64,000 nucleotides of DNA from IMG/VR virus record IMGVR_UViG_3300031553_000001, positions 1-64,000 of that record. One strand, 5' to 3'. The position numbers and the translations under genes were made by a program. The notes beneath the pieces were generated by a model. It was not told where the DNA came from, made no database searches, and saw only the letters and a list, made by a program, of their open reading frames with translations. The stretch is from a virus. Below, in pieces: positions 29,724 to 57,039 of the stretch. Each line of letters begins with the position of its first letter. Position 1 is the first letter of the stretch.

Positions 29724-30589
29724 CTAATCTCTTTCCATTCTCCAACAAAATATTATAAGATTTCCAGCGTTATCTTTATATTTTCTGGTAAACTTCCATC
29801 TACAGATAAGTCCGTTAGTAGCCACTTCTGGACATATAGCATCCCTATCATTGGCCCTTTGTCACCTCTCTCTATCTCTTTGTATCGCCTGGTGTTTTTC
29901 GTGTCTTTGTCTTTTGTGAAGTCTATGGTCTCTGGCATTATGTATAATCTCCTCTATTGTGGATGATACCATCTCCACGTATGTGTCCTGGGTAGTGGCT
30001 ACCTCTCTTGAGATGCTTGGAGTATGACCAATGTATGCCGTCTCTGGAGTATTCTTGTACTCTACCAGATGCAGTATGTACTATCTTGGTGTGGTAGCTT
30101 TTTGGCTTGTAATTTATCGCTAGTGCATACCACAATATGAGGATGGTTATGATAGCTAGTATTATCAATATTAGTTTATCCATTGGAGTGTTGCCTCTTT
30201 ATCTCTTCTCTCTCTTGTAGCCACTTGACTAGTGTCTTGTCCGCTTGCTGGTATGAGTAGCCCTGGTCTTTGAGCGTATTGAATGCTTTGGTGTTGCTTA
30301 CCCTGTGGTGGAGGAACTGCTGATGCGTGTTCTCTACCTTGGTTTTCCATCCCATATGAGTTAATCCTTTCCAAACAGGCCTTGCTTTTATTATTCCTCT
30401 ACTGCTACTGCCTCGTAGGTCCGCTCGAAGTCGGTTGGCCAATGCTGGTGTGCTAATAAGTGGCTGCTTCAAATATTCTGTGATAGTGGTTACCACTAGC
30501 GCCAGGAACAGTGCCGCTTTGATTGATCGAAATCCATATTGTCAATCTCCATATCATAAGCTTTACAGAATGCCAGGAATTATACCTTA

Positions 30590-30676
30590 ACCGGTCTGGA
30601 CTGGCTGGGCCCAGACCGGCTTTCACGAAAGGAGGAAAGAGATGAACAGGCTCACCGGTCGTCACGCGGCAACCCG
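30590..30676 (-). ncRNA. Candidate sRNA with anti-Shine-Dalgarno tract
   Basis: Begins just after the promoter motif, contains TCTTTCCTCCTTTC, ends in a 9-bp hairpin (30591-30619). Confidence 0.45.
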
Positions 30677-30693
30677 CTACTATAGTAAACTTG
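30677..30693 (-). promoter_or_regulatory. Phage promoter motif CAAGTTTACTATAGTAG
   Basis: One of five near-identical copies, all at gene boundaries. Confidence 0.7.
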
Positions 30694-30882
30694 AATACTA
30701 TCAACTTTTGTCAATGAATATTGGAATCCGCTCATCTGGTTCCAGTACCGGCTCACGGAATAGTTGCGGATAGTCCAGCATAATCTCACGCCGCCTACTA
30801 GGCCATTCCTCTGTTGTACTCATAACATACAATTCACCGTGTGGCACGCGCTTGGATTTTAGGAAGTATGTATACACAGATT

Positions 30883-31353
30883 TTACCATGCCAATTCACC
30901 ATCCAGCCTGTCAAGCTCAGCCTTCATGTCTTCGAGATTATGATCCAACAATGCTATCCTCATACGATCTGATATAGTAGAAAACTCTCCATACATCCAG
31001 ATATACCATCTTGCCATGTGTGTAAACGCATTCAACGGCATCACTGCCACCTCTAGCTTGTCCTGGCCTTTTTTCTGTGTGCGCTTGAGAATAGCCACTG
31101 GGATTGTGTATCCCTCACTGAGCGTGATTTCATTGATGGCCGATATACTGGGTGTGGATCCCCAGCACTTGCACTGGATGGCAAATGGCTCCGTATTGTC
31201 AATGTCTCTGCCATAGCCTGCTTCATCCTCTTGGAATTCCAGGTGACGTTTGGCATCCTTCCAACCTGCTTCACGCATCACCTTGGCTATGTGTCGCTCA
31301 TACGCGGCACCCTTGGTCCTACTAGTCTTACTCAACCGGATACCTCCTATCAC
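30883..31353 (-). CDS. Holliday junction resolvase, PD-(D/E)xK type
   Basis: SRTKGAAYER..GRDID..AIQCK. Confidence 0.75.
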   Translation of the reverse strand: MIGGIRLSKTSRTKGAAYERHIAKVMREAGWKDAKRHLEFQEDEAGYGRDIDNTEPFAIQCKCWGSTPSISAINEITLSEGYTIPVAILKRTQKKGQDKLEVAVMPLNAFTHMARWYIWMYGEFSTISDRMRIALLDHNLEDMKAELDRLDGELAW

Positions 31354-32425
31354 ACGTTACTGGCTGTCTAATCACCCTAACTGTAAGTCCTAGCACTTTG
31401 GCAAAAGAATTGGCACATTTCAAAGCCAATCCTCTGATTTTAGATATTTCAGCTGCCGATACCGTCCAGTCAGTCAATGATGCCATATTCTTTGTAATAG
31501 CAAGTGCATCTTTCCGTGTTCTAGTATGAGTGCCAGGCGGTGATATGAGAAGCCCGCTGTGCATATGGATGACTTGCCAACCTTGACCTGCCTCCAAAAT
31601 AGGTGCTTGTTCATCAGAAGACCAACTCACCACATTTGGTGTTTTAACGACGGCCAACCCAGGAACGATGGAGTATCCTCTCCAGTCAACCAATACCTCA
31701 CGATTTGGACTGTACATTCTACTACGCAGCAATAGTTTCACATCGATCTGTTTCATTGTATAGCTGGATACCTCTTATCGCACGTTACTGGATGTCTAAA
31801 CAAAACGTGTTCCCAAGTAGACCTTGGTGGATTGACTGTACTTCGGGTGCGCACCTTGCGCCCCATCTTTTTCACGCCAATCAGCTCTATAGCCTCCTTG
31901 ATGGCCTCACATCTATCCCCAGATGATTCTATCAACACGTATTCCTCATCACACGCGCCTTTGGGATTATACCATACGCCTGGTAATAGCTTATCACCCA
32001 GATTGTCAATAACCATCAACATTAGTGGGGATGTATTTATGCTAGGCATAATCCCTATCTCACTCAGATCACAGAGATTAACCCACAAGTACCTATCCAC
32101 TAGTGTTCTCCAAGACATCCATATTGTCAATGATGCCTTCCCAAAGCGATTTACTTATTGCCTCAAACATATCCTGAAATATGATCTCCAGCTTTTCATA
32201 ATTTGGAAGGCCATTAGGCACAGCACCATACACATCTACATCCGCCAATAGCCTGCGCCGTTCTTTTATGAAATGATCTCCATGTATGTGTAGCGTAACG
32301 CTAGATTCGACCTCGATTTCCATAATATCATCCTGTCTATGTGTGCATCCACCACCAAGCGATAAGTTCACCAGTAGCTTTGTTACAGATACGAACCAGC
32401 CGCCGCTTGAACAATGGTACTGCAA
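31328..32425 (-). other. Three overlapping hypothetical ORFs (31328..31756, 31753..32130, 32093..32425)
   Basis: Overlapping ORFs in the operon; two share a PVTCD.RYP C-terminus. Confidence 0.5.
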
Positions 32426-32451
32426 TTATATTTATCAACTGGCAAAACAAC

Positions 32452-33699
32452 TTATAGTTTAACAACTGGATGCCTCACTGTATTGTCAAACTCAGGACGC
32501 TCTAGCCTGGAAAATGATCCAGTATACTCCGCCCCTTGCTCTAGTAAACTTGAGAAGCCATTAGCCAACAGGATACGTCTTATCCCATCGTAATCCGCTT
32601 CATTCCACTGGGCATCTAGTATACTGTAATGCGCACCGCATCTATCTATTGATAAGTCCATACAATTATATGCGTCACAATATCTCTCTGATCCAAAGCT
32701 CAACAGGCTTTCCAGCTGACGTTTATTCAATATTCCAAAATTATCAATATCCAAGCATAGTTCGTCATAGTCATAGGATGGACTGACATTGATCCAAAAG
32801 TTGACCAGTTTGATAGCCGTCTTCTTGCCTATCCAACGCACGCCAGGGATGCCATCCGACGAATCTCCAAACAGCACTTTGTATGGCAAATATGCCCCCC
32901 AATTTAAGCCCGTAAACCTCCTGAACGTATCTGCAGAGAATACCTTACCAGTACTGGGGTTGATTACACACACGCGCAGGTCTACTGCTTGTAACAAATC
33001 CGCATCCGTGGTAACGATATATGGCCTGTCTTGAACCATCTTGGCAGCGTGATACATCAAATCATCTGCCTCACAGTACTTGCGCCTTATTGTCAATATA
33101 CCATGGATGGGTAGAATCATATCACACAGCTCATCCATTTGCCCGTATACGGTGCCCCAATCTACGGATTCGTCTTTAGTGCGGTGTGCTTTGTACGTTG
33201 GCACTAGCCGCTTGCGATATGGTGGAGTGCCCCCATCAAAACATACTATCACAGACCTGGGATGCCACTTCTTTATCATTGTGTAGATCATTCTCATCAC
33301 GCCAAAGAGTATGGATGTGTCTTTGCCGTGATGGGATAGCTGAACCGTATGTAGTGCTCTGTACGCTGTGTTGTTACCGTCTATTATCAATACCACCGCC
33401 CACCTCATCATCCCTGAATGTAACTCACGTATAAACTCACTATTGTTAATACACACACCAACAGAGTCAAAGGAAAACCTGACGATGATGTTACTATACA
33501 GTGTTTTGGAAATGTCTATGGCAACCTTTTCCGGATAGCTACCTAGCCCAACACCAATTTCTCTGGCCAATCTCAGATTTTGACGTTTACGTGCTGCCTT
33601 GGCTCCTGGAAAGTAGAATTCATGCGCATATTGGTTTGCATTTATTGCATCTTTGATGTTTTTGACGTACTCAGCTGCCGATACATTATTCAGATCCAT
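32452..33699 (-). CDS. 5'-3' exonuclease / flap endonuclease (Pol I N-terminal-like)
   Basis: IIDGNN, CFDGG, YKAHR, EADD, TDADLLQ, GDSSDGIPGV..IGKKTA. Confidence 0.9.
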   Translation of the reverse strand: MDLNNVSAAEYVKNIKDAINANQYAHEFYFPGAKAARKRQNLRLAREIGVGLGSYPEKVAIDISKTLYSNIIVRFSFDSVGVCINNSEFIRELHSGMMRWAVVLIIDGNNTAYRALHTVQLSHHGKDTSILFGVMRMIYTMIKKWHPRSVIVCFDGGTPPYRKRLVPTYKAHRTKDESVDWGTVYGQMDELCDMILPIHGILTIRRKYCEADDLMYHAAKMVQDRPYIVTTDADLLQAVDLRVCVINPSTGKVFSADTFRRFTGLNWGAYLPYKVLFGDSSDGIPGVRWIGKKTAIKLVNFWINVSPSYDYDELCLDIDNFGILNKRQLESLLSFGSERYCDAYNCMDLSIDRCGAHYSILDAQWNEADYDGIRRILLANGFSSLLEQGAEYTGSFSRLERPEFDNTVRHPVVKL

Positions 33700-35790
33700 A
33701 TATTTTGTCTCTTAACATACGTTCATATTGCCGTTCCAAGTCATCCTCTACATTGCCACGAAAGTTGGCATACAAAACCATCACCAACACGATGCTGCCA
33801 AGGATTAGAGGCACGGCGCACACTACTGCCAGAGATGATGGGCCATCGCCACCAGCTGATTTGGCACTCAGATCTTGGGTGACCTGCGAACCAACTCCAG
33901 CAATCAAGCCGACAACGATGGCCGCCAAGAAGAAAGCTATCAACAACAGTTTCAATTCAGAAGTCATCTCAAAACTCCTTTCTGCACCCTATTTACCCTG
34001 CTTGTCCATCAATTTTGGTTTTGGCGTCAACCAAACTTCGGCCGTTGCCGTCATCCCCGCTTTCCGAGTGACTACCATCACCGCTGTCCAACGTGCCTGT
34101 CGTGTTTGCGCTTCCACCTGTCGTGTCCTCTTGACCGCTCGACTTGTTGCATTTCTGCGTACCGCATTTACCGTCGAGGCACTCGCATCTAACTCCGTAC
34201 GCACCTCCTGCCAGATGACACTACCCACTCGAAGTAGCCAAAAGAGAACCACCGCAAGTAGTACACAACCCGCAAAAGTCACCCAACGTTTGATGCTTTT
34301 CAGGTCTCGATCTCGATCTTCAGTCACGTCAAACCTCCTCTACACTAACGTCTAGTAACCCAGCTCCAAACACTTCTTAGTTGCCACCTCTCGATACACG
34401 CCATCAACCATGTCAGCGCACTCTTCATACGTACCTATGTCCTGTTCAACGCAAACATAGATGGCCGCTGCCGCGTCTGGCCCCTGGTAGAGAACCTCCA
34501 TGGCCGCTCGCACACAAGCATCCATGTTCTTGTCCGTTGCCGAACCAGAACCAACGCCAAAATCCAAATCGGGTGTAGGCCCACTAGTTGGCAAGACCCA
34601 AGGAGTAGCGGTGCGGTTGACTTTATGGACTGATGTCAGGAGTACCCTCTTCGTCGCTGTCTTTTCAGCATAACTGTCTCCACCATCCCGCCCAACTGAC
34701 GCACAGCACACTAATAGAAGAAACAATGCTAATGAAACTGCCCCGATCAGAACCTTCATCTTGCTACTCACAACAAACCTCCTAGGTAGTTGAGCCCACT
34801 AAGCACACTGCAACCGCCCAGCAGCACGAAAAGGATGAGTGAGATAAGCATCACGGTGCCCATGAACGACACCCACCCACGAATACAATGCACCTGTTTG
34901 TACAGGTCCTTCAGTTGCTCCAACTGCCCGTGTATACTCGCAACCTCGTCCAGCAGAAGCTGTTCCGTTGTCAATAGTGGCTTCTCTTCATCTGCCTCGG
35001 CCGCCTTCATTACATACTCTGCCATCTTGTTACTCATTGCCATACCTCCTATAGAAACGAACAACACACTAATAGAAGAAACAATGCTAATGAAACTGCC
35101 CCGATCAGAACCTTCGTCTTGCTTTTCACCTCAAAACCCTCCGTCCCCATAGCTCCAGAATTCCAAAGGGAATAGCTGCCAACAAACCTACCACTATCCC
35201 TAGCCAAGGAAAATCATCAAACCCGCTGATTAGCCCACCAAGTAGGGCAAGCACTATACTGATTATCAAAGCCAAACTGACTGCCCCACTACTCATTACA
35301 TCCCTTCCCGCACGTCTGACCGTGCCTTGATAATGCAAACCACGCCCACGCCGATGATTATCAATATCACTACTGGCAGAAAGATAACCTCAAACATCTC
35401 AACCTCCAAAATTCGTGGATGCGTAAATCCAAATCCAAATAGCCGCTGCGATTATCAAGGCCAAAATACCTAGAAATGAGTTATCCCGTCGTGGCTCAAG
35501 TGGCGGCAAAAACGGATACATATCACCCAAATCGCGCCTTCCCATATTGTCAACCTCCAATTACGCTCAACAGCCTTGGATTATCAATACAAGCATCAAC
35601 ACTAATCCTATTCCAAACAGTACAGGCAATCCTATCTCACAAAAGGCTCTTTTCATAATCAACCTCCATATACACCTAGACATAAGAACACCAGTATGAA
35701 AACCGCTACCGCACAACCTACCGCCAAAGCCAAACCGCCAGAACTATCCACATCCAACCCACGCAGATTGTCAATCCAGTTCATATTCAA
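33686..35790 (-). other. Cluster of small membrane/secreted proteins
   Basis: 33686..33967, 33989..34327, 34352..34771, 34768..35067 and 35126..35338, plus shorter hydrophobic ORFs with GGAGG RBS; each has TM or signal segments. Confidence 0.6.
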
Positions 35791-36007
35791 TTCCACCCAC
35801 CCACATGGCTTACGTCAGTGAACGCATCAGCCAAGCGCTTCTTCTGCCCAACATCACGCTGCAAAAATTTGCGGTTGTTGGCTTCACATTCTGCACACAA
35901 TCGTATCCAAACCGTCTTGATTTTCTCATGTCCAGAATCCATATCAATTACATTGACCTGGATTGATAGTGCATATTGCGCTTCTTCTCCACACACATCA
36001 CATTTCA
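35787..36007 (-). CDS. Small zinc-finger protein
   Basis: MKCDVC...LCAEC. Confidence 0.55.
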
Positions 36008-36011
36008 TTGT

Positions 36012-36259
36012 TGACCTCACAAAGCCGTGCCCTGCCGTGCCATTACTCTACGTCATCAGGCTACGCTATTACTGTGCACATCCCCACGTTGCTCCACCAT
36101 TGCATTACCTGTCGCAACCGTATGCCGCTTTGCCATCACATAACCCTATACCACTGTGCCATTGCTCTGCGTCGCAAATCGTGACCCTGCCATCGTTGTG
36201 CGTCACGCTGTCCAACTATACTTCACCACTGCTATACATCACCTGGCGTGACAAAGCCA
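36012..36259 (-). repeat. Non-coding array of eight TGGY-(NN-NGY)n-NN units; candidate guide-RNA array
   Basis: Unit lengths 31,36,31,26,36,31,26,31 nt; 32 of 40 triplet slots are NGY; starts at the RAMP stop codon. Confidence 0.8.
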
Positions 36260-36883
36260 TCACTCTTCTTTTGTCATCTCATATATGATCCTCCCAAAAC
36301 CGCTGCCTCGATTCTGGAGCAGCCCTTGGTAATATCCATAATCAAATAGATTTCTCAAAACCTCCTCCGTGATTGGCCCAGGATATACACTGATTCCACA
36401 TTCAAACCAGGAGTTTTCTGGAATTGACTCACTTCTAGCCAACACCATACGTTGACCAAACGCTGTTTGCGCAGGAAGTGGACGTTCATATATGTCAATT
36501 GTCCCACCGTCGGGTAAATGTAGCGGAATCCACCTTGGTGACACAAAGACCAACTTGGATACCTTGCTTCTCAAAGCCCGTAGTGGCTTGCCAGTTGGCA
36601 TTTTCAATTGTCCATTCAATACCACACCAGCAGCCTTGAGGAAGCCCTTGACGTGATAGTCAAACAGACCTATTTCAAACTCTCCACCATCTGATAGGTA
36701 ATGACGATGGAACACCGTGGTGGCCTGCTCCAGAGCATCGGGGAGACTCTCTATCTCATCCTCTGGAATGGCAAAGTTGTGCTTCTTGGCTATGTATTGG
36801 GTAGCCACATCTCTGGTTGACTGTGATCCCAAGCATGGCGTTATGAACGTCACCTTTGCCTTATAGGTAGCTATGTGTACCAT
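36260..36883 (-). CDS. Solo RAMP / Cas7-like RNA-binding protein
   Basis: N-terminal strand VTFITPCLGS, helix motif HVKGFLKAA, C-terminal Gly-rich loop GLLQNRGSGFGR. Confidence 0.7.
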   Translation of the reverse strand: MVHIATYKAKVTFITPCLGSQSTRDVATQYIAKKHNFAIPEDEIESLPDALEQATTVFHRHYLSDGGEFEIGLFDYHVKGFLKAAGVVLNGQLKMPTGKPLRALRSKVSKLVFVSPRWIPLHLPDGGTIDIYERPLPAQTAFGQRMVLARSESIPENSWFECGISVYPGPITEEVLRNLFDYGYYQGLLQNRGSGFGRIIYEMTKEE

Positions 36884-36911
36884 CTATATCCTCCATTAGA
36901 TTGTCAATCCG

Positions 36912-36928
36912 CTACTATAGTAAACTTG
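36912..36928 (-). promoter_or_regulatory. Phage promoter motif upstream of the RAMP gene
   Basis: CAAGTTTACTATAGTAG, then ATTGACAAT, then GGAGG RBS. Confidence 0.7.
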
Positions 36929-37451
36929 CTGCCAAAGCAATATGGCCACGCCACTCTTTTTCCAGGTTTGGCCTACGCAAGACATAGGCTGGATGCCAAG
37001 TGGCCGCGTATATTGTCCCATCAAACTCATATTCCCACAGCGTTCCAGCCCACTTAGCTTCATTTCCCAAAACTGCCACAAAAGCCGTCTTACCCAACAG
37101 CAATACCATTTCTGGATCCAATCGCTCGATGTCCCTGCGCAGGAATGTGGCACATAGCCTAGCCGCTTTGGCAGGCAACTTATTGTCAATTGGATGACAC
37201 CTCACCACATTGATGTAGGCCGCCATCTCATCTATTCCCAAATCACCTAACGCACTGACTAGCAGTTCGCCAGATCTGCCTATCGGCTTGAAGGTTGGAC
37301 CAACCTTCTCCACATCTCTTCAAGGTGCTTCTTGGACCACTAGGATGCGCGGATTGGGATTGCCTATCACGCCCTGGAATGGATGCGCTTTGTCCCGAAA
37401 CAGGCCACACTCTTGACATATTGGATTGTCAATGCCTGGTTGATCGGCCAC
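36915..37451 (-). pseudogene. Family-4 uracil-DNA glycosylase-like gene with in-frame TGA
   Basis: GTG 37451: ...CQECGL...ILVVQEAP*RDVE...PIGRSG...NVVRCHP...TWHPAYVLR; TGA at 37320-37322. Confidence 0.75.
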
Positions 37452-37452
37452 T

Positions 37453-38340
37453 TTATGCTCCAATATTCCAAAATACCACTGGCTGCTCAAGATGCTCTAT
37501 ATTGTCAATCAACCACAGCCACGCCTTGGCATCATAATACTCATTACATGGAAACGGAATATCCGCATTGTCTACTCCGTCTTTGTAGGCATAATTTTCA
37601 TCTATGAATCGCAAATTGTCGCCTGGAATCACACCAGCCATCTGAGTGATATATTTTCTGGCTGCATCTTTGCTTCTGCTATAACCCATATGAGCTAGGA
37701 TAACCGCTGATTGTTCCCAAGCATTATACAAGCCGCGCACTACACCAGCGCATATAGTACCTGAGCTAATAGACACTACCCAAGTACCCTTAGCGTATAT
37801 ATCATCCGGTGTATACGTTCGTGCTTCCATTGCAGTAGCTACTACTGTCTCTTGCAAACATAACCCATTAGGCATCATCACCCCACGGTCATCAGTCATT
37901 TGAGCCAAGACCTTTTTGGCTTGATGATACAAGACACAACTACGTCCTGCCTGCAATGGAACGATTTGAGCACCTAGATTAGCTGCAACCTGCTGATGCA
38001 TGCGTATTTTATGGTCAGGAAACCAACCATCGCTAGGCGTGCCTGGCTCCAAATACTCATCCTTGTATACCGGATAGAATACGATGCACTTCAGACCTAG
38101 ATGATGACACAGATATGCTACTCCTCTGCCAGCTTTGGAGTGATACGTATCCAATACACCCATAGTTGTATCATGATTGAATTTTGTCAAATATGATACA
38201 ACTCCACGAATCTTGGAGAAGTGTGGGCCACTTGGATCAGGACAACACAAATCCTCGCGCTTAACCCAAACAGGCCAAGTGTCGTCAATATCATACTGTT
38301 CCCAAGGCGTATTGTCAATCAACAGACTGTTAGTGTCCAT
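37453..38340 (-). CDS. PLP-dependent enzyme (fold type II), DNA hypermodification decarboxylase-like
   Basis: VWVKREDL..FSKIRG (PLP lysine), SISSGTI, PFPCNEYYDAKAW, FWNIG. Confidence 0.75.
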   Translation of the reverse strand: MDTNSLLIDNTPWEQYDIDDTWPVWVKREDLCCPDPSGPHFSKIRGVVSYLTKFNHDTTMGVLDTYHSKAGRGVAYLCHHLGLKCIVFYPVYKDEYLEPGTPSDGWFPDHKIRMHQQVAANLGAQIVPLQAGRSCVLYHQAKKVLAQMTDDRGVMMPNGLCLQETVVATAMEARTYTPDDIYAKGTWVVSISSGTICAGVVRGLYNAWEQSAVILAHMGYSRSKDAARKYITQMAGVIPGDNLRFIDENYAYKDGVDNADIPFPCNEYYDAKAWLWLIDNIEHLEQPVVFWNIGA

Positions 38341-38512
38341 TCATCTCCCTGCGTAACTGCTCTTGAGCCAGGATGGCAGCCATCCTGGTTTCTAATGCCC
38401 GTTCCTTGAGATATTCGGCACGCCTATTCAGGGCATCAATTTCAGCACGCTTTATTCGCTTCCATGTAGCCAAATCAACTTGAGTTATAGTCATGACACC
38501 TCTCCTTGTTGT

Positions 38513-38685: not shown

Positions 38686-38701
38686 TACTATAGTAAATTT
38701 G
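38685..38701 (-). promoter_or_regulatory. Phage promoter motif (CAAATTTACTATAGTAG)
   Basis: One mismatch to the other copies. Confidence 0.65.
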
Positions 38702-38709
38702 TTCACGAA

Positions 38710-47839: not shown

Positions 47840-47842
47840 CTG

Positions 47843-48304
47843 CTAACCACGTCTTCCACTTTCCATATCAGTCATATCATACTCGTGGCGCAGCTGTGCA
47901 CCCATAGATTGTAGCATACTGGCACGCTGTTCAAATGCTCTGGATAAATCTCGAAGCGTGTGAAACTTGTGCAATGCTACATCCTCTTCCTCACGCGCAA
48001 CGCTCACCTCCTCATCTATATCCACTAGCTTGGCAGCAGTCCCATCACTCACAGATCGGCTGCCATCAGGGATGGATTCTTTGTCATTCTTGTAGAACAT
48101 ATAGGCACTGGCCTCAGACTCTTTACGTTGCCGTACACAATCCAACCAGGCCAACTCCGCTGACGATGTCATGGTGGCAAAGTATGCGTACCTAGCCGCC
48201 TGCGCTGCGAACTCATTAGGTAGATCAGCCTGATCCACCTCCAACAATTCCTTAACTGACAGATCCTTGTCAGCTACTTTCACATTTACATCAAGATTTA
48301 ACAT
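47843..48304 (-). CDS. UvsY-like recombination mediator (putative)
   Basis: Helical ~150 aa with AFEQRASML..GAQLR motif, next to gp32 and RecA. Confidence 0.5.
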   Translation of the reverse strand: MLNLDVNVKVADKDLSVKELLEVDQADLPNEFAAQAARYAYFATMTSSAELAWLDCVRQRKESEASAYMFYKNDKESIPDGSRSVSDGTAAKLVDIDEEVSVAREEEDVALHKFHTLRDLSRAFEQRASMLQSMGAQLRHEYDMTDMESGRRG

Positions 48305-48658
48305 TTTATGGCCATCCTTTCTCTAGTCTTTCCAATTCACGATCCTGCTCTTCAACAGGGTATACTTTCACAGCTCTCCCAAAACGTATATACAAATTTC
48401 CCAATTCAAACACTTCCGCTTCATTAGCACCAATCATATTCAAATAGTATCTAATTTCTTTGACAGCATTTATTACTCTTGTTGTCAAAGGTGGCTTTGC
48501 GTTTACAACATCATCCTTGTATGAGCGTAACGATGCACGCAATTTCTCACTTTCCTCCTCCCGGATAGCTTTACGCAACATATCTATCTTCTGTTGTCCC
48601 TCCTCCTCTGTTAATTCCTCTTTATCTGGAAATGTGTAATCCATTGTCATTCTCCTTT

Positions 48659-51259
48659 TCAGAATGGTATATGTACTTCACCAGCCAAATTTAGCTTTTC
48701 CATAGCTCCATAATGGCTGCCAACGTCTACATCCGCGTTCAACGGACAGATTAGCCAACTCATGTCGATGTTTGGCATCCACTCAGCACCATACTTCACC
48801 ACATTCTCCATTACATCCACGCACAGCCCAGCTACATCTAGCAATTCACCAGGATACACATCAAACACTATAGAGTCATGCACAGTGTTCACTATCTTAG
48901 TATGCCAACCCCGCTCCAGCATCAGATTGTCAATGATTACCAGGGCCATCACCGTAATCAAACCGGCTGCGCCCTGCACAGGCGTGTTGGCTGCCTCACG
49001 CTCAGCATGCTTGCGCCTGGATTGCTCTGGTGCATCTATATCCGATAATGGCCGCCTGTTTCCAAATGGCGTTTCAATGTAGCCATTCTTACGCGCAAAG
49101 CGCACACATTCCTTCTGGAATTCCAGCACCTCTGGGAATGCTGTGTAGTACTGTTCTTTTATGAGCTTTCCCTCCTTCAATGGAATGTCATATAGCCGCT
49201 CTAGCGTATACTCTGAACCACCATAGAGCATAGTCCAATTGGTCCATTTATATCTATACCTCTCTGGTTTTGTGATCTGGTCATAGGGCTTACCGCTCAC
49301 CATAGCCCCAACCATTGTATGGAAATCCCTGCCACTACGATGGATTTCCAACATAGCCTCACATCTGGCTAGACTAGCAAACACCCGCAGTTCCATACCG
49401 CTGTAATCCACAGACATCACATAGCCGTCATTCACATCCAACTCCAGATTGTCAAACCACCTCCAGTCTGTTGGGATACCTGGAACATACTCGTATTCCT
49501 CACCATTTTTGTTAGACCACGTATGGGTAAACATATTCTTGATCGGCAAACATTCCATCATCGTGCCTGGCTCCTTCTCTGGCACTGGAATGTTCTGTAG
49601 ATTGGGATTACTAGATGACAGCCTGCCCGTCACCACAGTATGTTGACCAAACGATGACCTTATACGTCCATCTGAAGAGGATGCGTATACACCAGTGGCT
49701 GTAGGTGTTATGTATGTACCCAACATCTTTTGGTACATTCCATACATTATCAAATCCGCCACCAGTGGGCACTTATCCTTGTAGATTTCCAAGAATTCGC
49801 GTTTGGTGGACGGATTTCCAGAATCCGAAAAACCTTGCGGTTTGAGATTATACGAGTACTGAAGTGCATCCTTGCGCCACTCAGCAGATTTGGCCCACTT
49901 GCAATATTTACCACCGTATAGCACCCAAGCTTTCTGCTGCCAGCTTCCAGGATTGAATTTGAATTTCTTGGAAGCTTTATGTCGGCATTCCACATAGCCT
50001 TTGACCATTGGATTATTGTCAATAGCCTCCACAGTGTCCATCATCTCAGCAGTATACACGCGCCTGTACCGCTCTGCCATATAGTAATCCACTGCCAAGC
50101 CATTGCACTGCATCCGCGCAATAGTGTTTGATGCAGGCACAAATAGCTCATCATACAAGACTTGCTGCTTGGAAGTCAGTTTACTATACAACAATTTCTC
50201 TAGCTGAAATGTGGCTGCCGCGTCCTTGGCAGCGTATGGCAACAGGACATCTAGTGGAACCTGAGAATAGTTGATCTTGTCACTCTTGGCTACGTAACTC
50301 TTGAGCTCTTTGTCGTACTCGAACATCCCCAGATAGTACCCTGCCAGCCGTTTCAAACCATGTAAGCCAGTCTTGGATTCATATAGAAATGACGCCAACA
50401 TCGAATCGCCTTGGGCATCAAACTCAACGTCCAACAAGGCTTTGCATTGCATCTGGTCGAATTTGATGTTGTGACCAATGATGTGAGGATGAGATTCTAG
50501 AACATTACACATCATATCCAAGGCACCGTCGGATAAAGGTGCCAAATCACCTGGATGATCCACAGGCACTGCCCAGGCTGTATCTGCTGTGGCAAATGAC
50601 ATAACCAACAAGCGCTGATTATTGTCAAAAGCATCCAATGAATTCACTTCTGTATCAAACGCTATGACAGGGGATGCCATCAAGGCCACACACATATGAT
50701 ATATTCCTGGCTTGGAATATACGAATTCGTAGTCATATTCTTGGTCTGCTGATGGAGCAACTCCACTACTCCAAGCGTTCCAAGCTTCCTCTATTCCTTG
50801 CAACCACGTATTTGTGGCTGATTGGTTGCGCAGAATGTAAGCCGGATGGAACAGTGGCACGTATATTACCCCGTCACGCTCCACTACCACCCCATTCCAG
50901 GAAGTGATGCCAGATTCTCCAAGTACCGCCTTCAATGGCGTGTTGCCAAACAGAAGTACCATCTTCGTATTGGATTTGATGGGCAACGACTGGTAGCAGC
51001 ATTTAATGTATTTAGGCTTTATCTTGTTGCCTGGGGGATGACACCTGACTATGTTGGTATATGTAATAGGTGGAAAGCCAAACGACTCTAACGCAGTGCG
51101 CAGTAGCTTACCAGACCTACCCACAAATGGCTTGCCCTGTTTATCCTCTTCGTCACCTGGCGCCTCCCCAACTGCCAGGATTGTATAGTCACCGCCATCG
51201 TCCGGCACTGGACCATTGGACAGCTCCAACAGACCGCACTTCTTGCAATCTGGTTCCAT
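48659..51259 (-). CDS. polA: Family A DNA polymerase with N-terminal UDG-like and 3'-5' exonuclease domains (SPO1-type)
   Basis: GEAPG..HPAYILR; AFDTE, GHNIKFD, YAAKDA; TGRLSSSNPNLQN, DYSGMELR, TVHDS. Confidence 0.95.
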   Translation of the reverse strand: MEPDCKKCGLLELSNGPVPDDGGDYTILAVGEAPGDEEDKQGKPFVGRSGKLLRTALESFGFPPITYTNIVRCHPPGNKIKPKYIKCCYQSLPIKSNTKMVLLFGNTPLKAVLGESGITSWNGVVVERDGVIYVPLFHPAYILRNQSATNTWLQGIEEAWNAWSSGVAPSADQEYDYEFVYSKPGIYHMCVALMASPVIAFDTEVNSLDAFDNNQRLLVMSFATADTAWAVPVDHPGDLAPLSDGALDMMCNVLESHPHIIGHNIKFDQMQCKALLDVEFDAQGDSMLASFLYESKTGLHGLKRLAGYYLGMFEYDKELKSYVAKSDKINYSQVPLDVLLPYAAKDAAATFQLEKLLYSKLTSKQQVLYDELFVPASNTIARMQCNGLAVDYYMAERYRRVYTAEMMDTVEAIDNNPMVKGYVECRHKASKKFKFNPGSWQQKAWVLYGGKYCKWAKSAEWRKDALQYSYNLKPQGFSDSGNPSTKREFLEIYKDKCPLVADLIMYGMYQKMLGTYITPTATGVYASSSDGRIRSSFGQHTVVTGRLSSSNPNLQNIPVPEKEPGTMMECLPIKNMFTHTWSNKNGEEYEYVPGIPTDWRWFDNLELDVNDGYVMSVDYSGMELRVFASLARCEAMLEIHRSGRDFHTMVGAMVSGKPYDQITKPERYRYKWTNWTMLYGGSEYTLERLYDIPLKEGKLIKEQYYTAFPEVLEFQKECVRFARKNGYIETPFGNRRPLSDIDAPEQSRRKHAEREAANTPVQGAAGLITVMALVIIDNLMLERGWHTKIVNTVHDSIVFDVYPGELLDVAGLCVDVMENVVKYGAEWMPNIDMSWLICPLNADVDVGSHYGAMEKLNLAGEVHIPF

Positions 51260-51695
51260 CTACAACCTCCACATCCACTACAGCAGACCACACATCTAGC
51301 GGCCAACAATGTTCTGCAAAGTCCACCAAGATAGGTAAGTCGGGCCAGTCTTGGATATGATACTTTCCAAATGGCCCAGCATCCAAGGCCAACACCTCTA
51401 AGGTAGTATTATTGTCAAACGTCACACGCAGAGTGTCTCCACACTTTACCTTACCTGACTGGTATGCCTCCACGTCCACCGCCACCCAGTTGTATTTACC
51501 AATAGACCTAGTATCATATACCATATCCACCGGATAGCCTGCCTGACCAGCACAATATAGTGGCCCGCCACCGTAATCATCAAAGGTGTAATAGGTGGCA
51601 ACTCCATGACCCAACAACGACGGTATCAACAACAATGGCCATAGTGCGTTCATATTGTCAATCACCAACGCTTCTCTGGCCATAGCTGGTAGCAA
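51189..51695 (-). CDS. RlpA-like double-psi barrel protein (putative lytic transglycosylase)
   Basis: GVATYY, VAVD, CGDTLRV, LDAGP. Confidence 0.55.
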   Translation of the reverse strand: MLPAMAREALVIDNMNALWPLLLIPSLLGHGVATYYTFDDYGGGPLYCAGQAGYPVDMVYDTRSIGKYNWVAVDVEAYQSGKVKCGDTLRVTFDNNTTLEVLALDAGPFGKYHIQDWPDLPILVDFAEHCWPLDVWSAVVDVEVVDGTRLQEVRSVGAVQWSSAGRWR

Positions 51696-52255
51696 TCCCT
51701 TGTTGGTACATCGAATACAAAAACCATACGATATGTAAATTGCGGTTGCAAGCCATCATAAATCCCTACAAGACCATACTCATCACTCGCCGCATATTGC
51801 GTGCGATAGCCTGCCATGTCGAAATGTGGCCCACCGCTACAACGACCAACATCGAAAGTATATGTGCTTATAGTATCACTGTGCATACCACAATTGATGA
51901 CGTCCATAAACACAAGTAGGAATACGCCCGTTGCGTGGTGTGTATGCCCCATGTTATCCACCAAGGCAGCTCTCCATGTGGTTCCTGTCCGAAGCCCCTT
52001 CATTCTGGTCGTGTATGGGTAATTCAAAAAGCGTATCCATTGTGGTGCTGGTGTGGCAGTTGGCTTAGGTGTTGCCGTTGGCCTCACCGTTGGAATCGGT
52101 GTTACAGTCGGAATCGGTGTGGGGGTAGGTGTCTTGTAGCTCTGCACCACCGGCAGATATACCAAATAGTCGTCATCCTCCTGCGCCAGGCTTACCGCGC
52201 AACCCACGCACAGTACACAGATTATCAAAGCCAAACTAACCAATCTCGATTTCAT
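51662..52255 (-). CDS. Secreted protein with YLPVV motif and Pro/Thr linker
   Basis: Signal peptide, YLVYLPVVQ, PTPTPIPT repeats. Confidence 0.7.
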   Translation of the reverse strand: MKSRLVSLALIICVLCVGCAVSLAQEDDDYLVYLPVVQSYKTPTPTPIPTVTPIPTVRPTATPKPTATPAPQWIRFLNYPYTTRMKGLRTGTTWRAALVDNMGHTHHATGVFLLVFMDVINCGMHSDTISTYTFDVGRCSGGPHFDMAGYRTQYAASDEYGLVGIYDGLQPQFTYRMVFVFDVPTRDCYQLWPEKRW

Positions 52256-52441
52256 TTCAAATCTCCTTTATCGGCCTTTTCAAGGTTAATGTGCTCTATT
52301 CCTATGCTTCTTCTTTCGGAAATAAGTGCCTGAAACAACAAGCCGGTTTGATCCATCAACTCCACTGCCTGTTGTTTCAGACTCTTCGCCTCCACCAGCA
52401 ATGCAGTTAGCTCGGCATACAAAGTCTGTTGCTTTGTCATT

Positions 52442-53575
52442 TTACGTCTCCTTTTCCACAGAATCCACCAGCTCCTCAGCAGCAAAGTACAGCTCATCCA
52501 CCCTGGCCTCATCGTTGGGATGCTGCTCTTGGAACCATATATCCAACAATTCCAGTGGATCCAGATTGTCAATACCTGCCACCCTCGGTGATCGTGCCAC
52601 CACTGGCTCCAATACGTCTATCCTGTCCAACAGATAGTAATTGCGGTTGATGGTCTCCCGTACAGTCTCAGCCACCGTGGCCCTGGGAATTATACCATCC
52701 GTGTGGACGCATACACGCACTATGGCATCCTCTACATCATACTCATCCAGCGCATATATCTCATCCCACTCTATTTGGATGTCCACCATATCTCTGACGG
52801 GCACATCCACAAATTCCCAAGACGTATTGTCTATATTCACGTCCGCCAATACAAAGCCCTTTGACCCACCACGCTCACCCCAGTCTATGCGCTCCAAGGA
52901 GCCACAATAGACGGCAGGTGGATTATCAACTACACATTGGCGCCCATGAATATGACCCAAAGCTGAGTAATCAAATACATTGAACAAGTCTGATGGCACG
53001 CAAAGGTCATTTCCTGGTTCCTCTCTATATACATACCCATCATTCAAGCGTAATCCAGGAACACCCACGTGTGCTGCCAATATGCAAGGTGTATTGTCAT
53101 CCGGTGAATCACCCAGCACTTTGTTGATGGCATCATACACATCGGTCAAGTCTTTGTCATAAAACCAAGGCAGCGTCACCACATATGCCTCACCAATCAA
53201 GTGACCAGCTATTTCAGATTCCACTATTATGTCGTGCTTGGCACCCAGATGAGACATCACATCTATGGAATGCGCCCGCCCCTTGCCAGATTTCAACCGA
53301 TCATGGTTCCCCACAACCATTACCATCGGTGCCACGTCAGCTAGTTGTATCATCCGCTCCGCAAATGGAGTCACCAACGTTGGCACAGGAGATCTTGTTC
53401 TGAACGCATCCCCAGCAAAGATTATCAAATCTGGCTGGTATTTTTGGGCAGCTTCAACCACACAGTCCAGAGCATCCAAATAGTCCAGTATCCTGGAATG
53501 CAACCCTGTAGCCGTGTCCAAATGCCCAAAGTTCGTCTGGCCCAGATGGACATCTGCAAAGTGGAGTAGCATCAC
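52442..53575 (-). CDS. sbcD: SbcD/Mre11-like nuclease
   Basis: ADVHLG, AGDAF, GNHD, ALGHIH, YCGSLERIDWGE. Confidence 0.9.
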   Translation of the reverse strand: MMLLHFADVHLGQTNFGHLDTATGLHSRILDYLDALDCVVEAAQKYQPDLIIFAGDAFRTRSPVPTLVTPFAERMIQLADVAPMVMVVGNHDRLKSGKGRAHSIDVMSHLGAKHDIIVESEIAGHLIGEAYVVTLPWFYDKDLTDVYDAINKVLGDSPDDNTPCILAAHVGVPGLRLNDGYVYREEPGNDLCVPSDLFNVFDYSALGHIHGRQCVVDNPPAVYCGSLERIDWGERGGSKGFVLADVNIDNTSWEFVDVPVRDMVDIQIEWDEIYALDEYDVEDAIVRVCVHTDGIIPRATVAETVRETINRNYYLLDRIDVLEPVVARSPRVAGIDNLDPLELLDIWFQEQHPNDEARVDELYFAAEELVDSVEKET

Positions 53576-54048
53576 CGCAAGAACTCCATTATCTCAGCCA
53601 CATCTATGCCTGTAACATTGGACCATACCTCTTCCACCCATCTCTCCACATCCTCCGGTCTCTCAGCAGCTATCCAATCCAGCCACATCAGACAATACAA
53701 CGATATGTCTACCAACAGATCCACAAACGCCAAATGTATCTCATCAGTAGCCAACCTGTGACCAGACATTACCACTTTGGCAATGCCATCAAGCTTCTCA
53801 AGTCTATCAGCCAACTGGCCATACCGGTCAGACTTCCTCATTACATTGTGATATACTCCAGCCTCACCACGCTTGGCCCAGCTACGTCCATACTGAGAAT
53901 CCTTATGCATGTGATATACCAACAGCAACGAAGCCAGTTTCACCATCGGAATAGGGTATGGATCGTCACTTGCATCCGCACACATAGTCATGGCAAACTG
54001 CGGCATGTCATCAGACACTTGCGCAATCATTTCCTCAAGGTTAATCAA
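53572..54048 (-). CDS. Nucleotide-modification-associated domain protein (DUF1599/Nmad1-like)
   Basis: KDSQYGRSWAKRG..RKSDR..DISLY. Confidence 0.65.
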   Translation of the reverse strand: MINLEEMIAQVSDDMPQFAMTMCADASDDPYPIPMVKLASLLLVYHMHKDSQYGRSWAKRGEAGVYHNVMRKSDRYGQLADRLEKLDGIAKVVMSGHRLATDEIHLAFVDLLVDISLYCLMWLDWIAAERPEDVERWVEEVWSNVTGIDVAEIMEFLR

Positions 54049-55600
54049 TTTTCACTCCATTATCCACGTATACATACTGATTGCATCCTTTATGTGGCCC
54101 AGTTGGCACCTTGGTCATGCCAAGCTTGTATTTGGGCAAATCTGGCACCTCCCACATTGGAACATAACTTAAATCAGCCTTGGTTGTTGCATTCATCACA
54201 TCCCACACAAGCGCACTATATTTATCCATCAAGACGCCAGCATACCGTATCATATATCGTGGTATGTCATTTATGCCACGATGATAGTAAAACCAAGGCA
54301 ACCACTCGCCATATAGAATAGAATTCAACATATCACAGTCCACCCCAACCGCTTCCATCGAATAGATGCGTTGTTTTGGATACCTGCAAGGCAGACCTTT
54401 TATTACATCACATCCACCTGTGCGATGCACGCACACGGGACAGTTGCCAAGCCCTATCACATATCTATTATCAAAGTGTTTCAGTAAACGCATTACGTAC
54501 CAGCTGGTAATAGAATCTGTGCAAGACCCACGCATATATGTGTTGCGGTTACCGGAATACTCAATCGCCCAAGCCATATCCACGGACACAGTAATGATTG
54601 CCAGCGTATCCAAGGATGGCCTAATGGCATCAAACCTAGGTGCGCACCCTGGGCAACCGCCGTTCATACCCTTGCACGTACCACACGCCGTGGCCTGTTC
54701 CCACTCCGTCAACAACGGTACATCGCCACGTTTCAGAACGTGCATATGAACCAGCAGACTTAGAATATTTCCAGTACTAGTCTTGTAGCCCACATTCCAA
54801 TCATACACTCTGCAATTGGTTATATCAGATCCAACTTTGTCGCTAACGTCTGCCCATGGCCCCCACTCGGATGGTTCCAATATCTCAGATCTGGATGTAA
54901 TCTCTATATCAGGCACTAAGGCTGCCAATTCATTCCTGGCTCGTACATTGTTCTCATACTCTATTCCCACCACAGCCGCCCACACTTTGACTTCTCTGTT
55001 GGACAACCGTACCACATCCATATATGACTCAAGATTGCCAACAGCTGATAGGAATTCATACAACATATCATCCCTGGTGACACTATCCACATCAATCCAG
55101 CGCACATACGTTTGGTTATAGCTCTCGGCATGTCGAACTATGCTTTCACATTTATGTGTGATATTGTCAACATTAATTCCACGTGGCTTGGATGACTTCC
55201 TATTCCTTATCCGTCTTAGACACCCGTCCACCGATGCCTTCAATATCACAAACATCGGTTTGATACGATGTGATACCTCCAACTCCAATAGGAAATTATA
55301 GAATGTGGATTTGATGGTGGAGATCATCATACCTTCAAACAGCACATCACAATCTGGATGATTATCAATAGCATCCATGATAGCTAACTTGACATTGGCC
55401 ACATTACTACCACCAGGCAACTTATCACAACCATTACTGGTTCGCGTGCTCAAATCATAGTGCCCCACCAACACCCACCCAAAATCGTGCAGCACCGTAT
55501 TCCACTGCTCCACTTCTATATCACAACTAGCCGCTACCATCTGCAGGGGAATAGTAGACTTTCCAGATCCATTGCTGCCTTTGATTTGAACCACTTTCAT
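54041..55600 (-). CDS. P-loop kinase (5-hmU DNA kinase-like) fused to a DUF2284-like Cys-rich domain
   Basis: IKGSNGSGKST, GHY..GCD, VLFEG; C-term CPGCAP, CPVC..C..PCRYP..YSMEAVGVD. Confidence 0.7.
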   Translation of the reverse strand: MKVVQIKGSNGSGKSTIPLQMVAASCDIEVEQWNTVLHDFGWVLVGHYDLSTRTSNGCDKLPGGSNVANVKLAIMDAIDNHPDCDVLFEGMMISTIKSTFYNFLLELEVSHRIKPMFVILKASVDGCLRRIRNRKSSKPRGINVDNITHKCESIVRHAESYNQTYVRWIDVDSVTRDDMLYEFLSAVGNLESYMDVVRLSNREVKVWAAVVGIEYENNVRARNELAALVPDIEITSRSEILEPSEWGPWADVSDKVGSDITNCRVYDWNVGYKTSTGNILSLLVHMHVLKRGDVPLLTEWEQATACGTCKGMNGGCPGCAPRFDAIRPSLDTLAIITVSVDMAWAIEYSGNRNTYMRGSCTDSITSWYVMRLLKHFDNRYVIGLGNCPVCVHRTGGCDVIKGLPCRYPKQRIYSMEAVGVDCDMLNSILYGEWLPWFYYHRGINDIPRYMIRYAGVLMDKYSALVWDVMNATTKADLSYVPMWEVPDLPKYKLGMTKVPTGPHKGCNQYVYVDNGVKID

Positions 55601-55622
55601 TTTGAATTTCCCACTAAAACCT

Positions 55623-56192
55623 CTAAGTACACGCTGTTGGATACCACAATGATATATCCTCTACAAACATGTGGATTATCAAATCTGCCTGTGATCTCCA
55701 TCCAAAGTCATCAAAGGGTAGTTCAATCCAATCCTTCGGATCCAAATGCATAGCGGCAGCACGTATTAAGCGTGTGGACGATTCATACTCCAACTTATGT
55801 GGAGTCCAATACTTTTCAGCATATATACGATGACTCAAAACAGCACGCTTACGTAATGCCTGCTCCATATATTCGGCTGTGGTAGTGATTATTATCATAA
55901 ACAACCCACCACCCATTTCCAATGGAACGTGCTTGATATGATGAAATATGCTTCCCCAGAATCTCATACCTTCCGCTATCCAAAGCGTTTCTCTGTCACA
56001 TACCATATATCGTATTAGTTCTTGTTTACCAGGCAATGTCCTGTATACATCATATAAAGCAGGAAATTCTGGAATATTGTCATAGTTTGGTGTCAACATA
56101 TCACCAAACACTTTACGAATGCCAGGAATATCCAATGATTCCAAATAGGTGGTCTTACCCGTACAATGAGTGCCATAGATGCCAATCAACAT
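55623..56192 (-). CDS. Second P-loop nucleotide kinase
   Basis: IGIYGTHCTGKTT, IAEG. Confidence 0.65.
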   Translation of the reverse strand: MLIGIYGTHCTGKTTYLESLDIPGIRKVFGDMLTPNYDNIPEFPALYDVYRTLPGKQELIRYMVCDRETLWIAEGMRFWGSIFHHIKHVPLEMGGGLFMIIITTTAEYMEQALRKRAVLSHRIYAEKYWTPHKLEYESSTRLIRAAAMHLDPKDWIELPFDDFGWRSQADLIIHMFVEDISLWYPTACT

Positions 56193-56310
56193 AGAATAAC
56201 CCCAATAGAAATGAAAAATGATGGGGTAAAGATGGTGCCTGGGATGGTGGATTGTCATTTCATCCGGTGGCAACTCATCTTTACCCCATACATATTCAGC
56301 TCATACAGCA

Positions 56311-57039
56311 CTACTCCGTTGGCCCGTGGATCAGCGCGTCGCGTGCTGCCTTAGACTTGTACTCTGGCTTCCACTTCGTGATTCCCTTGCTCTTCTGATA
56401 TGCCAGGGTCAAGCGCATGTTGTTTACCAATTCATTGTCATGTTCCTCCCAAGTCACCTTGGCATCCTTGGCCTCCGCCACCTTCTCCTCGAAGGTCAGT
56501 GTCGGCCAGTACTCATGAAATTCTATATATTCCTTGGTCTGAGCTACAGCCTCCATCTCTGCAGTACTCATCAAACGTTGCGGCTTTGCTGGAACCACTA
56601 CAACTTCTTCTGACACGCTATCCGCATCAGCATAGGCCACCACATATGCGTGACCTTTCTTGCGGATTGTCAATGCCCGACCTGCTAGAAGCGCCTGGTC
56701 AACCAGCCCAAACAAGTCCGTGAACTCCAAGACTGAAGGCAACTCCACCGCACCAGGTTTTTCCTCAGTGACTTCCTCAGTCATAGCAGGCTTCCTTGTT
56801 CGAACACGTTTGACAGGCAACGCATCTGGAGCCACTTTCTTGCGCCGCTGCCGTCTGACAGGCTTTTCCTCAACAACTTCTGGTTCCTCAACAACTTCTG
56901 GTTCCTCAACAACTTCTGGTTCCTCAATATCAATGCTTTCCTGCTCAACCTCAGGAACCGTGGTGGGCTTACGCCGCGTCACTTTACGCACTCTTCGCTT
57001 CGTCATTTGATTCTCCTTGTTTTGTTGTGGCATCCTCAC
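56311..57039 (-). CDS. Hypothetical charged protein with EEPEVV repeats
   Basis: 18-nt tandem repeat x3.5 at 56866-56928. Confidence 0.6.
   Translation of the reverse strand: MRMPQQNKENQMTKRRVRKVTRRKPTTVPEVEQESIDIEEPEVVEEPEVVEEPEVVEEKPVRRQRRKKVAPDALPVKRVRTRKPAMTEEVTEEKPGAVELPSVLEFTDLFGLVDQALLAGRALTIRKKGHAYVVAYADADSVSEEVVVVPAKPQRLMSTAEMEAVAQTKEYIEFHEYWPTLTFEEKVAEAKDAKVTWEEHDNELVNNMRLTLAYQKSKGITKWKPEYKSKAARDALIHGPTE

Follow-up and report, generated by a model that had tools for sequence, protein, structure and literature searches.

Why does a single eight-base word, read in one direction, recur about once per 530 bases through the DNA-metabolism genes of a phage, and what could be reading it? 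The question is raised by a 64,000-nucleotide stretch of viral DNA (the window), positions 1-64,000 of the 77,754-base IMG/VR record IMGVR_UViG_3300031553_000001; counts called whole-genome below cover all 77,754 bases. The word is TTGAYAAT, which has a C-form (TTGACAAT, or ATTGTCAA when read on the + strand) and a T-form (TTGATAAT, or ATTATCAA on the + strand), and about 70 copies of it lie on one strand of the genome, the - strand, which carries nearly all genes and is the coding strand of the phage. Our results showed that TTGAYAAT is selected at the level of the nucleic acid and reshapes the proteins encoded across it. It is probably a polar DNA-level signal for an enzyme that tracks along DNA, and the function to which we commit, although we hold it weakly, is that of a Chi-like array read by a helicase-nuclease.

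The first-pass annotation of the window had listed 36 positions of ATTGTCAA and had noticed no copy in the other orientation. All 36 were exact on the + strand, and the window contained 36 copies of ATTGTCAA on the + strand and 0 on the - strand, compared with a dinucleotide-shuffle expectation of 4.0 ± 1.9 (maximum 9) for both strands together. The T-form, which had also been described as frequent, was present at 32:1 (coding strand to other strand) in the whole genome, and the C-form at 39:0, so the polarity claimed for the word held for both. The two forms were the commonest octamers of the genome, and the next commonest overlapped them. The core TGAYAAT was divided 92:3 between the strands in this phage, and the inverted orientation was mildly depleted in the genome (3 vs about 12.8 expected). 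The consensus was W-TTGAYAAT-M-t-g, with a length of 8-9 bases and nothing conserved beyond ±2 bases; the flanks were checked and no hairpin and no partner element was found. One-base variants were scarce, the commonest being ATGACAAT (9:0) and TTGACAAA (7:0).

The enrichment persisted in a synonymous-codon shuffle, the check that the annotation had proposed, in which every protein and the codon usage of each gene were kept. In the DNA-metabolism ("middle") block on the - strand (30-57.6 kb), TTGACAAT was observed 33 times against 4.83 ± 1.94 expected (maximum 11 in 1000 shuffles) and TTGATAAT 15 times against 8.9 ± 2.7. The word sat in different reading frames, as had been noted: the frame was xTT-GAC-AAT in 25 of the 34 C-form copies of this block and TTG-ACA-ATn in 7 of the 34, while the third frame was barred by an in-frame TGA. 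The tripeptide [FLIV]DN occurred 38 times against 5.4 ± 2.2 expected, an excess of about 7-fold, and 33 of the 38 were spelt NTT-GAY-AAT, mostly with GAC, though GAT is the commoner Asp codon. Since the excess of [FLIV]DN is driven by the word, selection acts on the nucleic acid, which agrees with the earlier proposal; the expectation of the codon shuffle is itself raised because the proteins have already been bent to fit the word.

The same effect was observed in single genes. The gene of the family-A DNA polymerase, which has exonuclease and uracil-DNA-glycosylase-like (UDG-like) domains (48659..51259, - strand), carried five copies of the word, four of them at columns that vary among 12 orthologues, and three of these four were made by residues unique to this phage (such as IDN vs IDK, IDQ, and IDR). 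The fifth copy (LIM) was in a conserved column. The positions of the word were not conserved among orthologues. In contigs from other marsh samples, the word was intact at 31195 and 37182 amid dense substitutions, two cases that are anecdotal.

Along the genome, the word formed a dense array of 52 exact copies (34 C-form and 18 T-form) on the - strand at 30161..57255. In + strand coordinates, the C-form copies of the array started at 30538, 31195, 32002, 32123, 32482, 33089, 35546, 35767, 36900, 37182, 37425, 37501, 38311, 38918, 39398, 39502, 39727, 40003, 41414, 42032, 42254, 44769, 45296, 45587, 46222, 48926, 49448, 50015, 50621, 51411, 51654, 52565, 55163, and 56666. The T-form copies of the array started at 30161, 32740, 33383, 35262, 35357, 35451, 35580, 41149, 47229, 47811, 49746, 52221, 52922, 53421, 54467, 55361, 55675, and 57248. 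Copies were sparse in the late (virion) genes (1491..12665, - strand), where the C-form was found at 1491 and 11572 and the T-form at 4415, 4640, 6286, 9378, 9652, 11752, and 12658. The claim that the octamer is enriched only in the middle region stood for the C-form, which was nearly restricted to that block (34 of 39 copies, 30.5-56.7 kb), but not for the core TGAYAAT. In codon shuffles the core was observed 54 times vs 19.6 expected in the middle block, 9 vs 3.4 in the large (likely tail-fibre) genes, and 5 vs 1.1 in the helicase-primase genes; it was weakly enriched in the late genes (18 vs 11.1 ± 2.6) and at chance level in the accessory early genes (57.6-64.2 kb; 1 vs 1.2). The density varied 3-6-fold among modules, and one stretch of 6.6 kb was without copies.

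About 90% of the copies were inside open reading frames (ORFs), with an even spread along them. Within 60 nt of gene starts there were 10 copies vs 5.7 ± 2.3 expected, with no concentration before the starts, and repressor spreading from promoters, another of the functions proposed earlier, finds no footing in copies that are not tied to gene starts and lie at random places within ORFs. The spacing between copies was near random, pairs less than 50 bases apart were scarce, and newly acquired regions were without the word. Near-random spacing, unconserved positions, and word-free new regions fit selection for density rather than for particular sites. Even spacing was considered and rejected, the coefficient of variation (0.85-0.9 vs 0.97 for random placement) not being significantly different. 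A small repeat was likewise rejected as the source of the 94-95-base spacing at 35262-35546, where short hydrophobic ORFs contain TTG-ATA-ATC, encoding Leu-Ile-Ile.

Relatives of the phage made it possible to follow the word outside this genome, as the annotation had suggested. The polymerase has hundreds of uncultured relatives, many on contigs of 75-82 kb; in IMG/VR, a scan with a single protein gave none, and one based on an alignment was required. The compared set consisted of 11 whole or nearly whole genomes from IMG/VR, this phage (G000) and ten relatives (G001-G010). The nearest relatives, with polymerases of 55-67% identity and contigs reaching 81 kb, were outside this set, the metagenome scan having given short pieces of them only. 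Gene order was conserved among the relatives fetched, and the polymerase tree separated two groups, one of G000, G001, and G002 and the other of G003-G010. All ten relatives carried TGAYAAT or a sister word.

A natural inversion in G001 separated the direction of the genes from the direction of the genome. In this relative, an 11-kb block of ten ORFs was on the opposite strand; that these genes are real is shown by one that matched a helicase at E 1e-84 and by the flip of the bulk GC skew in the block. Within the block, the word was found 9 times on the + strand of the genome vs 1.94 expected, a number that 0 of 2000 shuffles reached, and only once vs 1.6 expected (chance) on the genes' own sense strand. 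At four-fold degenerate sites, read in the genes' own sense, the inverted genes had a GC skew of -0.21 and an AT skew of +0.05, compared with +0.07 ± 0.06 and -0.17 for the forward genes. Since these skews are opposite in the genes' own sense, the excess of G over C and of T over A stays on one strand of the genome regardless of gene direction, which is a strand asymmetry of the replication type, and the word is on the strand with leading-strand composition. With the caveat that it is a single ten-ORF block in a relative rather than in this phage, the inversion showed that in this sub-clade the polarity of the word follows the genome strand and not the gene direction. Together, the word and the four-fold skews of the inverted block argue for a genome-polar DNA signal.

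In the sub-clade of this phage, the core TGAYAAT was polar toward the coding strand in G001 (85:13) and G002 (61:8), where it was spread over nearly the whole genome; a control word, the pattern read backwards, was present in 2-6 copies per strand. In the other group the words and their orientation differed. TGGAAAT was present on both strands in G003 (73:73), G006 (67:40), and G009 (34:37). In G004 TGAYAAT was mostly antisense, with 67 antisense copies vs 14.9 expected and 38 sense copies vs 22.7 expected within ORFs, and G005 and G008 were mixed, with the word mostly antisense. The sister words across the clade, TGAYAAT, TGGAAAT, and TGGTAAT, have the frame W-TG-RN-AAT-M in common, and comparison of the sequences showed that TTGAYAAT is a member of this clade-wide word family. 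No such words were found in more distant relatives, whose DNA polymerases are 25-28% identical. No switch of orientation along the genome was seen in any of the 11 genomes, and no paired inverted sites were found in G003. Other strand-biased words, unrelated to TGAYAAT, were present in G004, namely AGCCGTCT (26:6) and TAGCCTCT (21:4) on the record strand and CCAAGCC (37:13) counted on the polymerase coding strand.

Among the functions named in the first-pass annotation, the translocase or Chi-like option is the class that we favour. In the tentative form given here, a processive helicase-nuclease, either of the host RecBCD/AddAB type or encoded by the phage, would enter at a free DNA end, such as the end upstream of the packaging genes after a terminase cut or the tail of a rolling circle. 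On the 3'-ended strand it would come upon the word from the 3' side and stop degrading, and the DNA end would then be handed to a recombinase, for which the phage has a RecA-like protein. By this route the pool of replicating DNA would be protected and recombination-dependent replication would be fed. We propose that many copies would be needed because each is recognised only part of the time. The array ends about 6 kb upstream of the gene of the large terminase (22500..24083, - strand, among the virion genes), and its strand ends 3' on that side; on this analysis, the orientation of the array is the one that a RecBCD-type enzyme entering from the terminase side would recognise.

Chi (crossover hotspot instigator) sites are defined by the response of the host RecBCD/AddAB enzyme, which ceases to degrade DNA on recognising them, and they are over-represented in the chromosome of the host, where they run with replication. 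The closest parallels are the Chi-rich phages, namely E. coli phages LLS and P1 and Pseudomonas phage MD8 (PMC12315714; Zheng et al. 2025), in which the orientation counts are 32:0 for MD8 and 20:3 for LLS. As in this phage, the exact octamer is the commonest in those genomes and the next commonest overlap it; it occurs about once per 1-2 kb, far above chance and nearly all in one orientation; and the copies are embedded in coding sequence and clustered upstream of the packaging start or genes (PMC12315714). Several points weigh against a Chi-like function of TTGAYAAT. The Chi-rich phages are without recombination genes of their own (PMC12315714), whereas this phage has RecA-, Mre11-, and UvsW-like proteins, FEN, and a RusA-like protein. 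They use the known Chi of a known host, and known Chi words are G-rich while TTGAYAAT is A+T-rich. Unlike in the Chi-rich phages, the relatives carry sister words, some on both strands, and the non-polar or antisense-biased words of the sister clade call for further postulates, for instance that the ends are permuted or that the enzyme enters elsewhere. In the Chi-rich phages the copies cluster towards one genome end; here the map is circular, the 127-base "terminal repeat" being an overlap of the assembly, and the location of the array near an end is an assumption. Moreover, the densest part in G001 starts sharply at the upstream edge and not at the downstream edge, and the depletion of the inverted orientation (3 vs about 12.8) is not predicted by Chi.

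It is possible, although doubtful, that the reader is encoded by the phage, as a DnaG-type primase with a start word of 7-8 bases or as an unrecognised helicase-nuclease that would degrade the chromosome of the host but spare DNA with the "self" word. Either way, word and reader would have co-diversified within the clade to give TGAYAAT, TGGAAAT, and TGGTAAT. The primase version is a close rival, ranked next after the Chi-like reading, though we consider it unlikely: the copies would be start sites of the phage's own DnaG-type primase, which travels with a DnaB-like helicase and would need an unusually long word, seeded on the lagging-strand template every 0.5-1.5 kb, with a specificity that drifted in the clade. 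All 11 genomes have a CHC2-zinc-finger primase and a DnaB-like helicase among their core genes, and the primase is the sole core protein known to read short words in single-stranded DNA. The spacing of the word fits Okazaki-fragment lengths, and its polarity matches the strand with leading-strand composition, which would be the lagging-strand template if forks run with transcription; forks that run in both directions or start by recombination would agree with the non-polar words of the sister clade. Known primase sites (5'-GTC-3' of T7 gp4, with GGGTC/TGGTC/GTGTC; CTG of E. coli DnaG; GTT/GCT of T4) are likewise expected on one strand, the lagging-strand template, and are read on single-stranded DNA by a helicase-coupled zinc-finger primase, and this phage encodes both proteins. 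Such sites are 3-5 bases long, however, compared with 8-9 here, and unlike TTGAYAAT they are so frequent that no enrichment is needed and they leave protein sequences unaltered; a literature search turned up no case in which a primase site of 7-8 bases was enriched across a genome. On the other strand, the variants all fit ATT-N-Y-C-AA, from which we infer a purine start opposite Y beside an uncopied C, as in GTC of T7, but this puts the site on the opposite strand and makes forks run head-on to transcription. A need of replication should also be uniform, whereas the density varies 3-6-fold by module with a 6.6-kb gap. Weak hints came from the primase tree, one of 3 among 15 gene trees that grouped the three TGGAAAT genomes with support (0.91), and from the very long branch of this phage's primase; the gp32 and capsid trees grouped the TGGAAAT genomes equally well. 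We give less credence to binding sites in duplex DNA for an architectural or timing protein of the phage, which might for instance coat or silence the DNA-metabolism genes and for which the co-orientation would be secondary (arising, for instance, from assembly head to tail or from a roadblock that acts in one direction). Copies of the promoter-like word at 58090 and 30689 bound the dense block of this genome, which coincides with one functional module, but in G001 and G002 the word covers nearly the whole genome, and accessory genes in the same transcription units are without it. A length of 8-9 bp and the W...M flanks common to the sister words would suit one evolving DNA-binding domain, the non-polar words of the sister clade would need no special pleading, and a barrier that acts in one direction would agree with the depletion of inverted copies; a polarity of 92:3, kept through the inverted genes, is left unexplained, and neither paired or inverted copies nor helical phasing was seen. 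At the start of the array lies the locus of a conserved SAP-domain protein, where two adjacent core genes (189 and 242 aa; 56311..57553, - strand) are fused in G001 and G002 (L071:12913-13896 and L079:7574-8668) into a protein with a SAP DNA-binding domain (Pfam E 3e-10). As a reader of the word it was set aside as a candidate only, since it modelled poorly (Atlas model pLDDT 0.47) and nothing ties it to the word.

The inversion in G001 bears most directly on a signal read by RNA polymerase or on the mRNA (for pausing, processivity, or RNA binding) in main-strand transcripts, a class to which the RNA-binding or antitermination site of the first-pass annotation belongs and which we regard as very improbable. 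All copies but one are on the coding strand in this genome, two copies lie at about +8 of predicted transcripts, and the phage has its own promoter type; a polymerase reading the whole genome one way could still see the words in the inverted block. Nevertheless, the inverted genes of G001 carry the word antisense and not sense; the words are mostly antisense in G004, G005, and G008 and equal on both strands in G003, G006, and G009; and there is no link to gene starts or ends and no flanking structure. Somewhat less probable still is that the word is the target of DNA modification by the phage, either thymidine hypermodification or the two adjacent N6/N4 methyltransferases, and is enriched for the density of modified sites. 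The array surrounds genes for a 5-hydroxymethyldeoxyuridine (5-hmdU) DNA kinase, an amino-acid:DNA transferase, radical SAM and pyridoxal-phosphate (PLP) enzymes, and two methyltransferases, and hypermodification depends on sequence context (PMC8989533). Duplex-DNA modification, however, does not predict enrichment on one strand. In searches by tblastn with the proteins of this phage (E below 1e-5), the four genomes with hypermodification genes (G000, G001, G002, and G004) all had TGAYAAT as top word; yet G003 (146 copies), G006, and G009 had equally dense sister words and no detectable hypermodification genes, and methyltransferases were detected only in G000. Decoys for a DNA-binding protein of the host, as the sigma70 -35 hexamer or as Fur-family half-sites for titration, are close to refuted. 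TTGACA is the -35 consensus, but the relatives use ATGATAAT or TGGAAAT without TTGACA, and no -10 partner, which a promoter would have about 17 bp downstream, was conserved (at most 0.23 bits at +14 to +21). The half-sites of a Fur box are arranged as TGATAAT-N-ATTATCA, and AATGATAATC, the extended word of G002 and G004, falls within the Fur-box consensus of E. coli. W-TGA-N-AAT is identical to the half-site in Desulfovibrio Fur-box sites (PMC545781), and a literature search for TTGAYAAT itself returned only Fur-box tables. Fur boxes, however, need an inverted second half (7-1-7) or at least three hexamers, whereas the genome has 3 inverted copies and nothing conserved beyond ±2 bases, and decoys have no need of polarity.

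Other polar oligomer signals are known. The KOPS/SRS type ("architecture imparting sequences") of bacterial chromosomes consists of polar octamers on the strand with leading-strand composition, with the wrong orientation under-represented, as it is, mildly, here. Those signals are read by a DNA translocase of the FtsK/SpoIIIE type, act at the scale of a chromosome, point to dif, and switch polarity at origin and terminus, unlike the words of the 11 genomes; no FtsK-like gene was hit among the ORFs scanned, which were not every ORF. The stoperators of cluster A mycobacteriophages (L5 gp71 sites) are also many co-oriented asymmetric sites through the genome of one phage lineage, but they follow transcription in both arms and are mostly intergenic in temperate phages with a repressor, whereas TTGAYAAT ignores gene direction in G001 and is intragenic. 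The co-oriented EcoP15I sites by which phage T7 evades Type III restriction resemble it as an asymmetric word on one strand with the inverted form scarce; that case explains the avoidance of one orientation and not a 7- to 30-fold excess of the other.

Words on one strand that are strong enough to rewrite proteins are a layer of phage genomes that gene annotation misses, and recoding these phage genes with synonymous codons, or optimising their codon usage, would destroy the signal. The present case adds a word family that is diversifying within one phage clade, a polarity that a natural inversion separates from transcription, and a coincidence of the word with replication-type mutational skew. 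In an uncultured sediment lineage, a word that was the Chi of the host would give a handle, from sequence alone, on the host and its recombination enzyme. A reader that belonged to the phage would be a primase or nuclease whose specificity is of a new kind; a primase would have by far the longest known recognition site, and the genome would have to be seeded with starts.

The promoters of the phage appear to be a different word. A promoter-like word, CAAGTTTACTATAG, distinct from TTGAYAAT and specific to the clade, was found just 5' of ribosome-binding sites, and CAAGTTTACTATAGTAG was present at 58090, 47835, 36924, and 30689; at 32548 only CAAGTTTACTA was present, as a partial copy. The copy at the upstream edge of the dense array (CAAGTTTACTATATAGAG) spans 58084..58090 on the - strand, and the further copies span 47823-47835, 36912-36924, and 30677-30689 on the same strand. 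Two copies of TTGAYAAT lie between this word and a ribosome-binding site, as the annotation had reported, with identical spacing after CAAGTTTACTATAGTAG. The C-form copy at 36900..36907 (- strand) follows the promoter-like word CAAGTTTACTATAGTAGCGGA at a distance of 4 bases and precedes the next gene's ribosome-binding site, and the T-form copy at 47811..47818 (- strand) has the same spacing upstream of the gp32-like gene. TTGAYAAT itself was rejected as a promoter, its copies not being gathered before gene starts. The versions of the promoter-like word in the relatives were CAAGTTTAGTA(T/A)ATAGAG in G003 and G004 (15-25 copies), GCGGTTTAGTATA in G001, and GCGGTTTTGTAT in G002. In this phage, the word includes ACTATAG, which recalls T7-group promoters; no RNA polymerase gene was recognised in the phage.

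All listed sources of the DNA were salt-marsh metagenome contigs of DNA, and no RNA source was among them. Known phages had no match to 10 kb of the sequence in a megablast search, the closest deposited phage polymerase was at most 27% identical, and a scan of genome contigs for a host gave only 25%-identical polymerases in unrelated metagenome-assembled genomes and no host lead. The middle block encodes an Mre11-like nuclease, the family-A polymerase with its UDG-like domain, and gp32-like, RecA-like, FEN, and RusA-like proteins, together with the 5-hmdU DNA kinase, the amino-acid:DNA transferase, a radical SAM/SPASM protein, an intein-bearing radical SAM protein, a PLP enzyme, and the two methyltransferases. 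The intein-bearing gene (38992-41499, - strand) belongs to the hypermodification set, is spore-photoproduct-lyase-like, and carries its intein with a Pfam Intein_splicing hit at E 3e-12, and its orthologues in G001 and G004 align over about 360 residues only, as if they were intein-free. A 132-aa ORF at 36915-37313 (- strand) matched the N-terminal part of the relatives' DNA polymerases with 33-47% identity and is apparently a polymerase domain present as a stand-alone copy.

Upstream of the array lie small accessory early genes (57.6-64.2 kb), which have no counterpart among the relatives, preceded in the coding direction by the genes of the UvsW-like helicase, the DnaB-like helicase (65878-66870), and the CHC2 zinc-finger primase (64334-65257, - strand) at 64.3-69.1 kb. 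The large proteins at 69.6-77.7 kb matched nothing in Pfam, PHROG, or PDB by sequence, apart from one whose C-terminus was weakly lectin-like (E 0.006); this hit and the position after the tail genes suggest that they are probably tail fibres, which is a guess. They were also considered as an RNA polymerase or a helicase-nuclease and set aside, without Pfam, PHROG, or PDB sequence support for either. The virion genes for terminase, portal, capsid, and tail (window 1-24083) were 44-57% identical to those of G003-G010, and compared with G001 they ranged from no hit to 31%. The virion genes are thus near G003-G010 but the polymerase tree places the phage near G001 and G002, which suggests module exchange, and such an exchange may be the reason for the scarcity of the word in the late genes. 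In an Rfam scan of the window at the gathering threshold, no ribozyme and only one tRNA was found, a tRNA-Ile with anticodon TAT (38710..38783, - strand), which lies inside the dense array. The codon that it reads, ATA, is the one that encodes Ile in T-form copies in the frame TTG-ATA-ATn and is also the commonest Ile codon of the phage.

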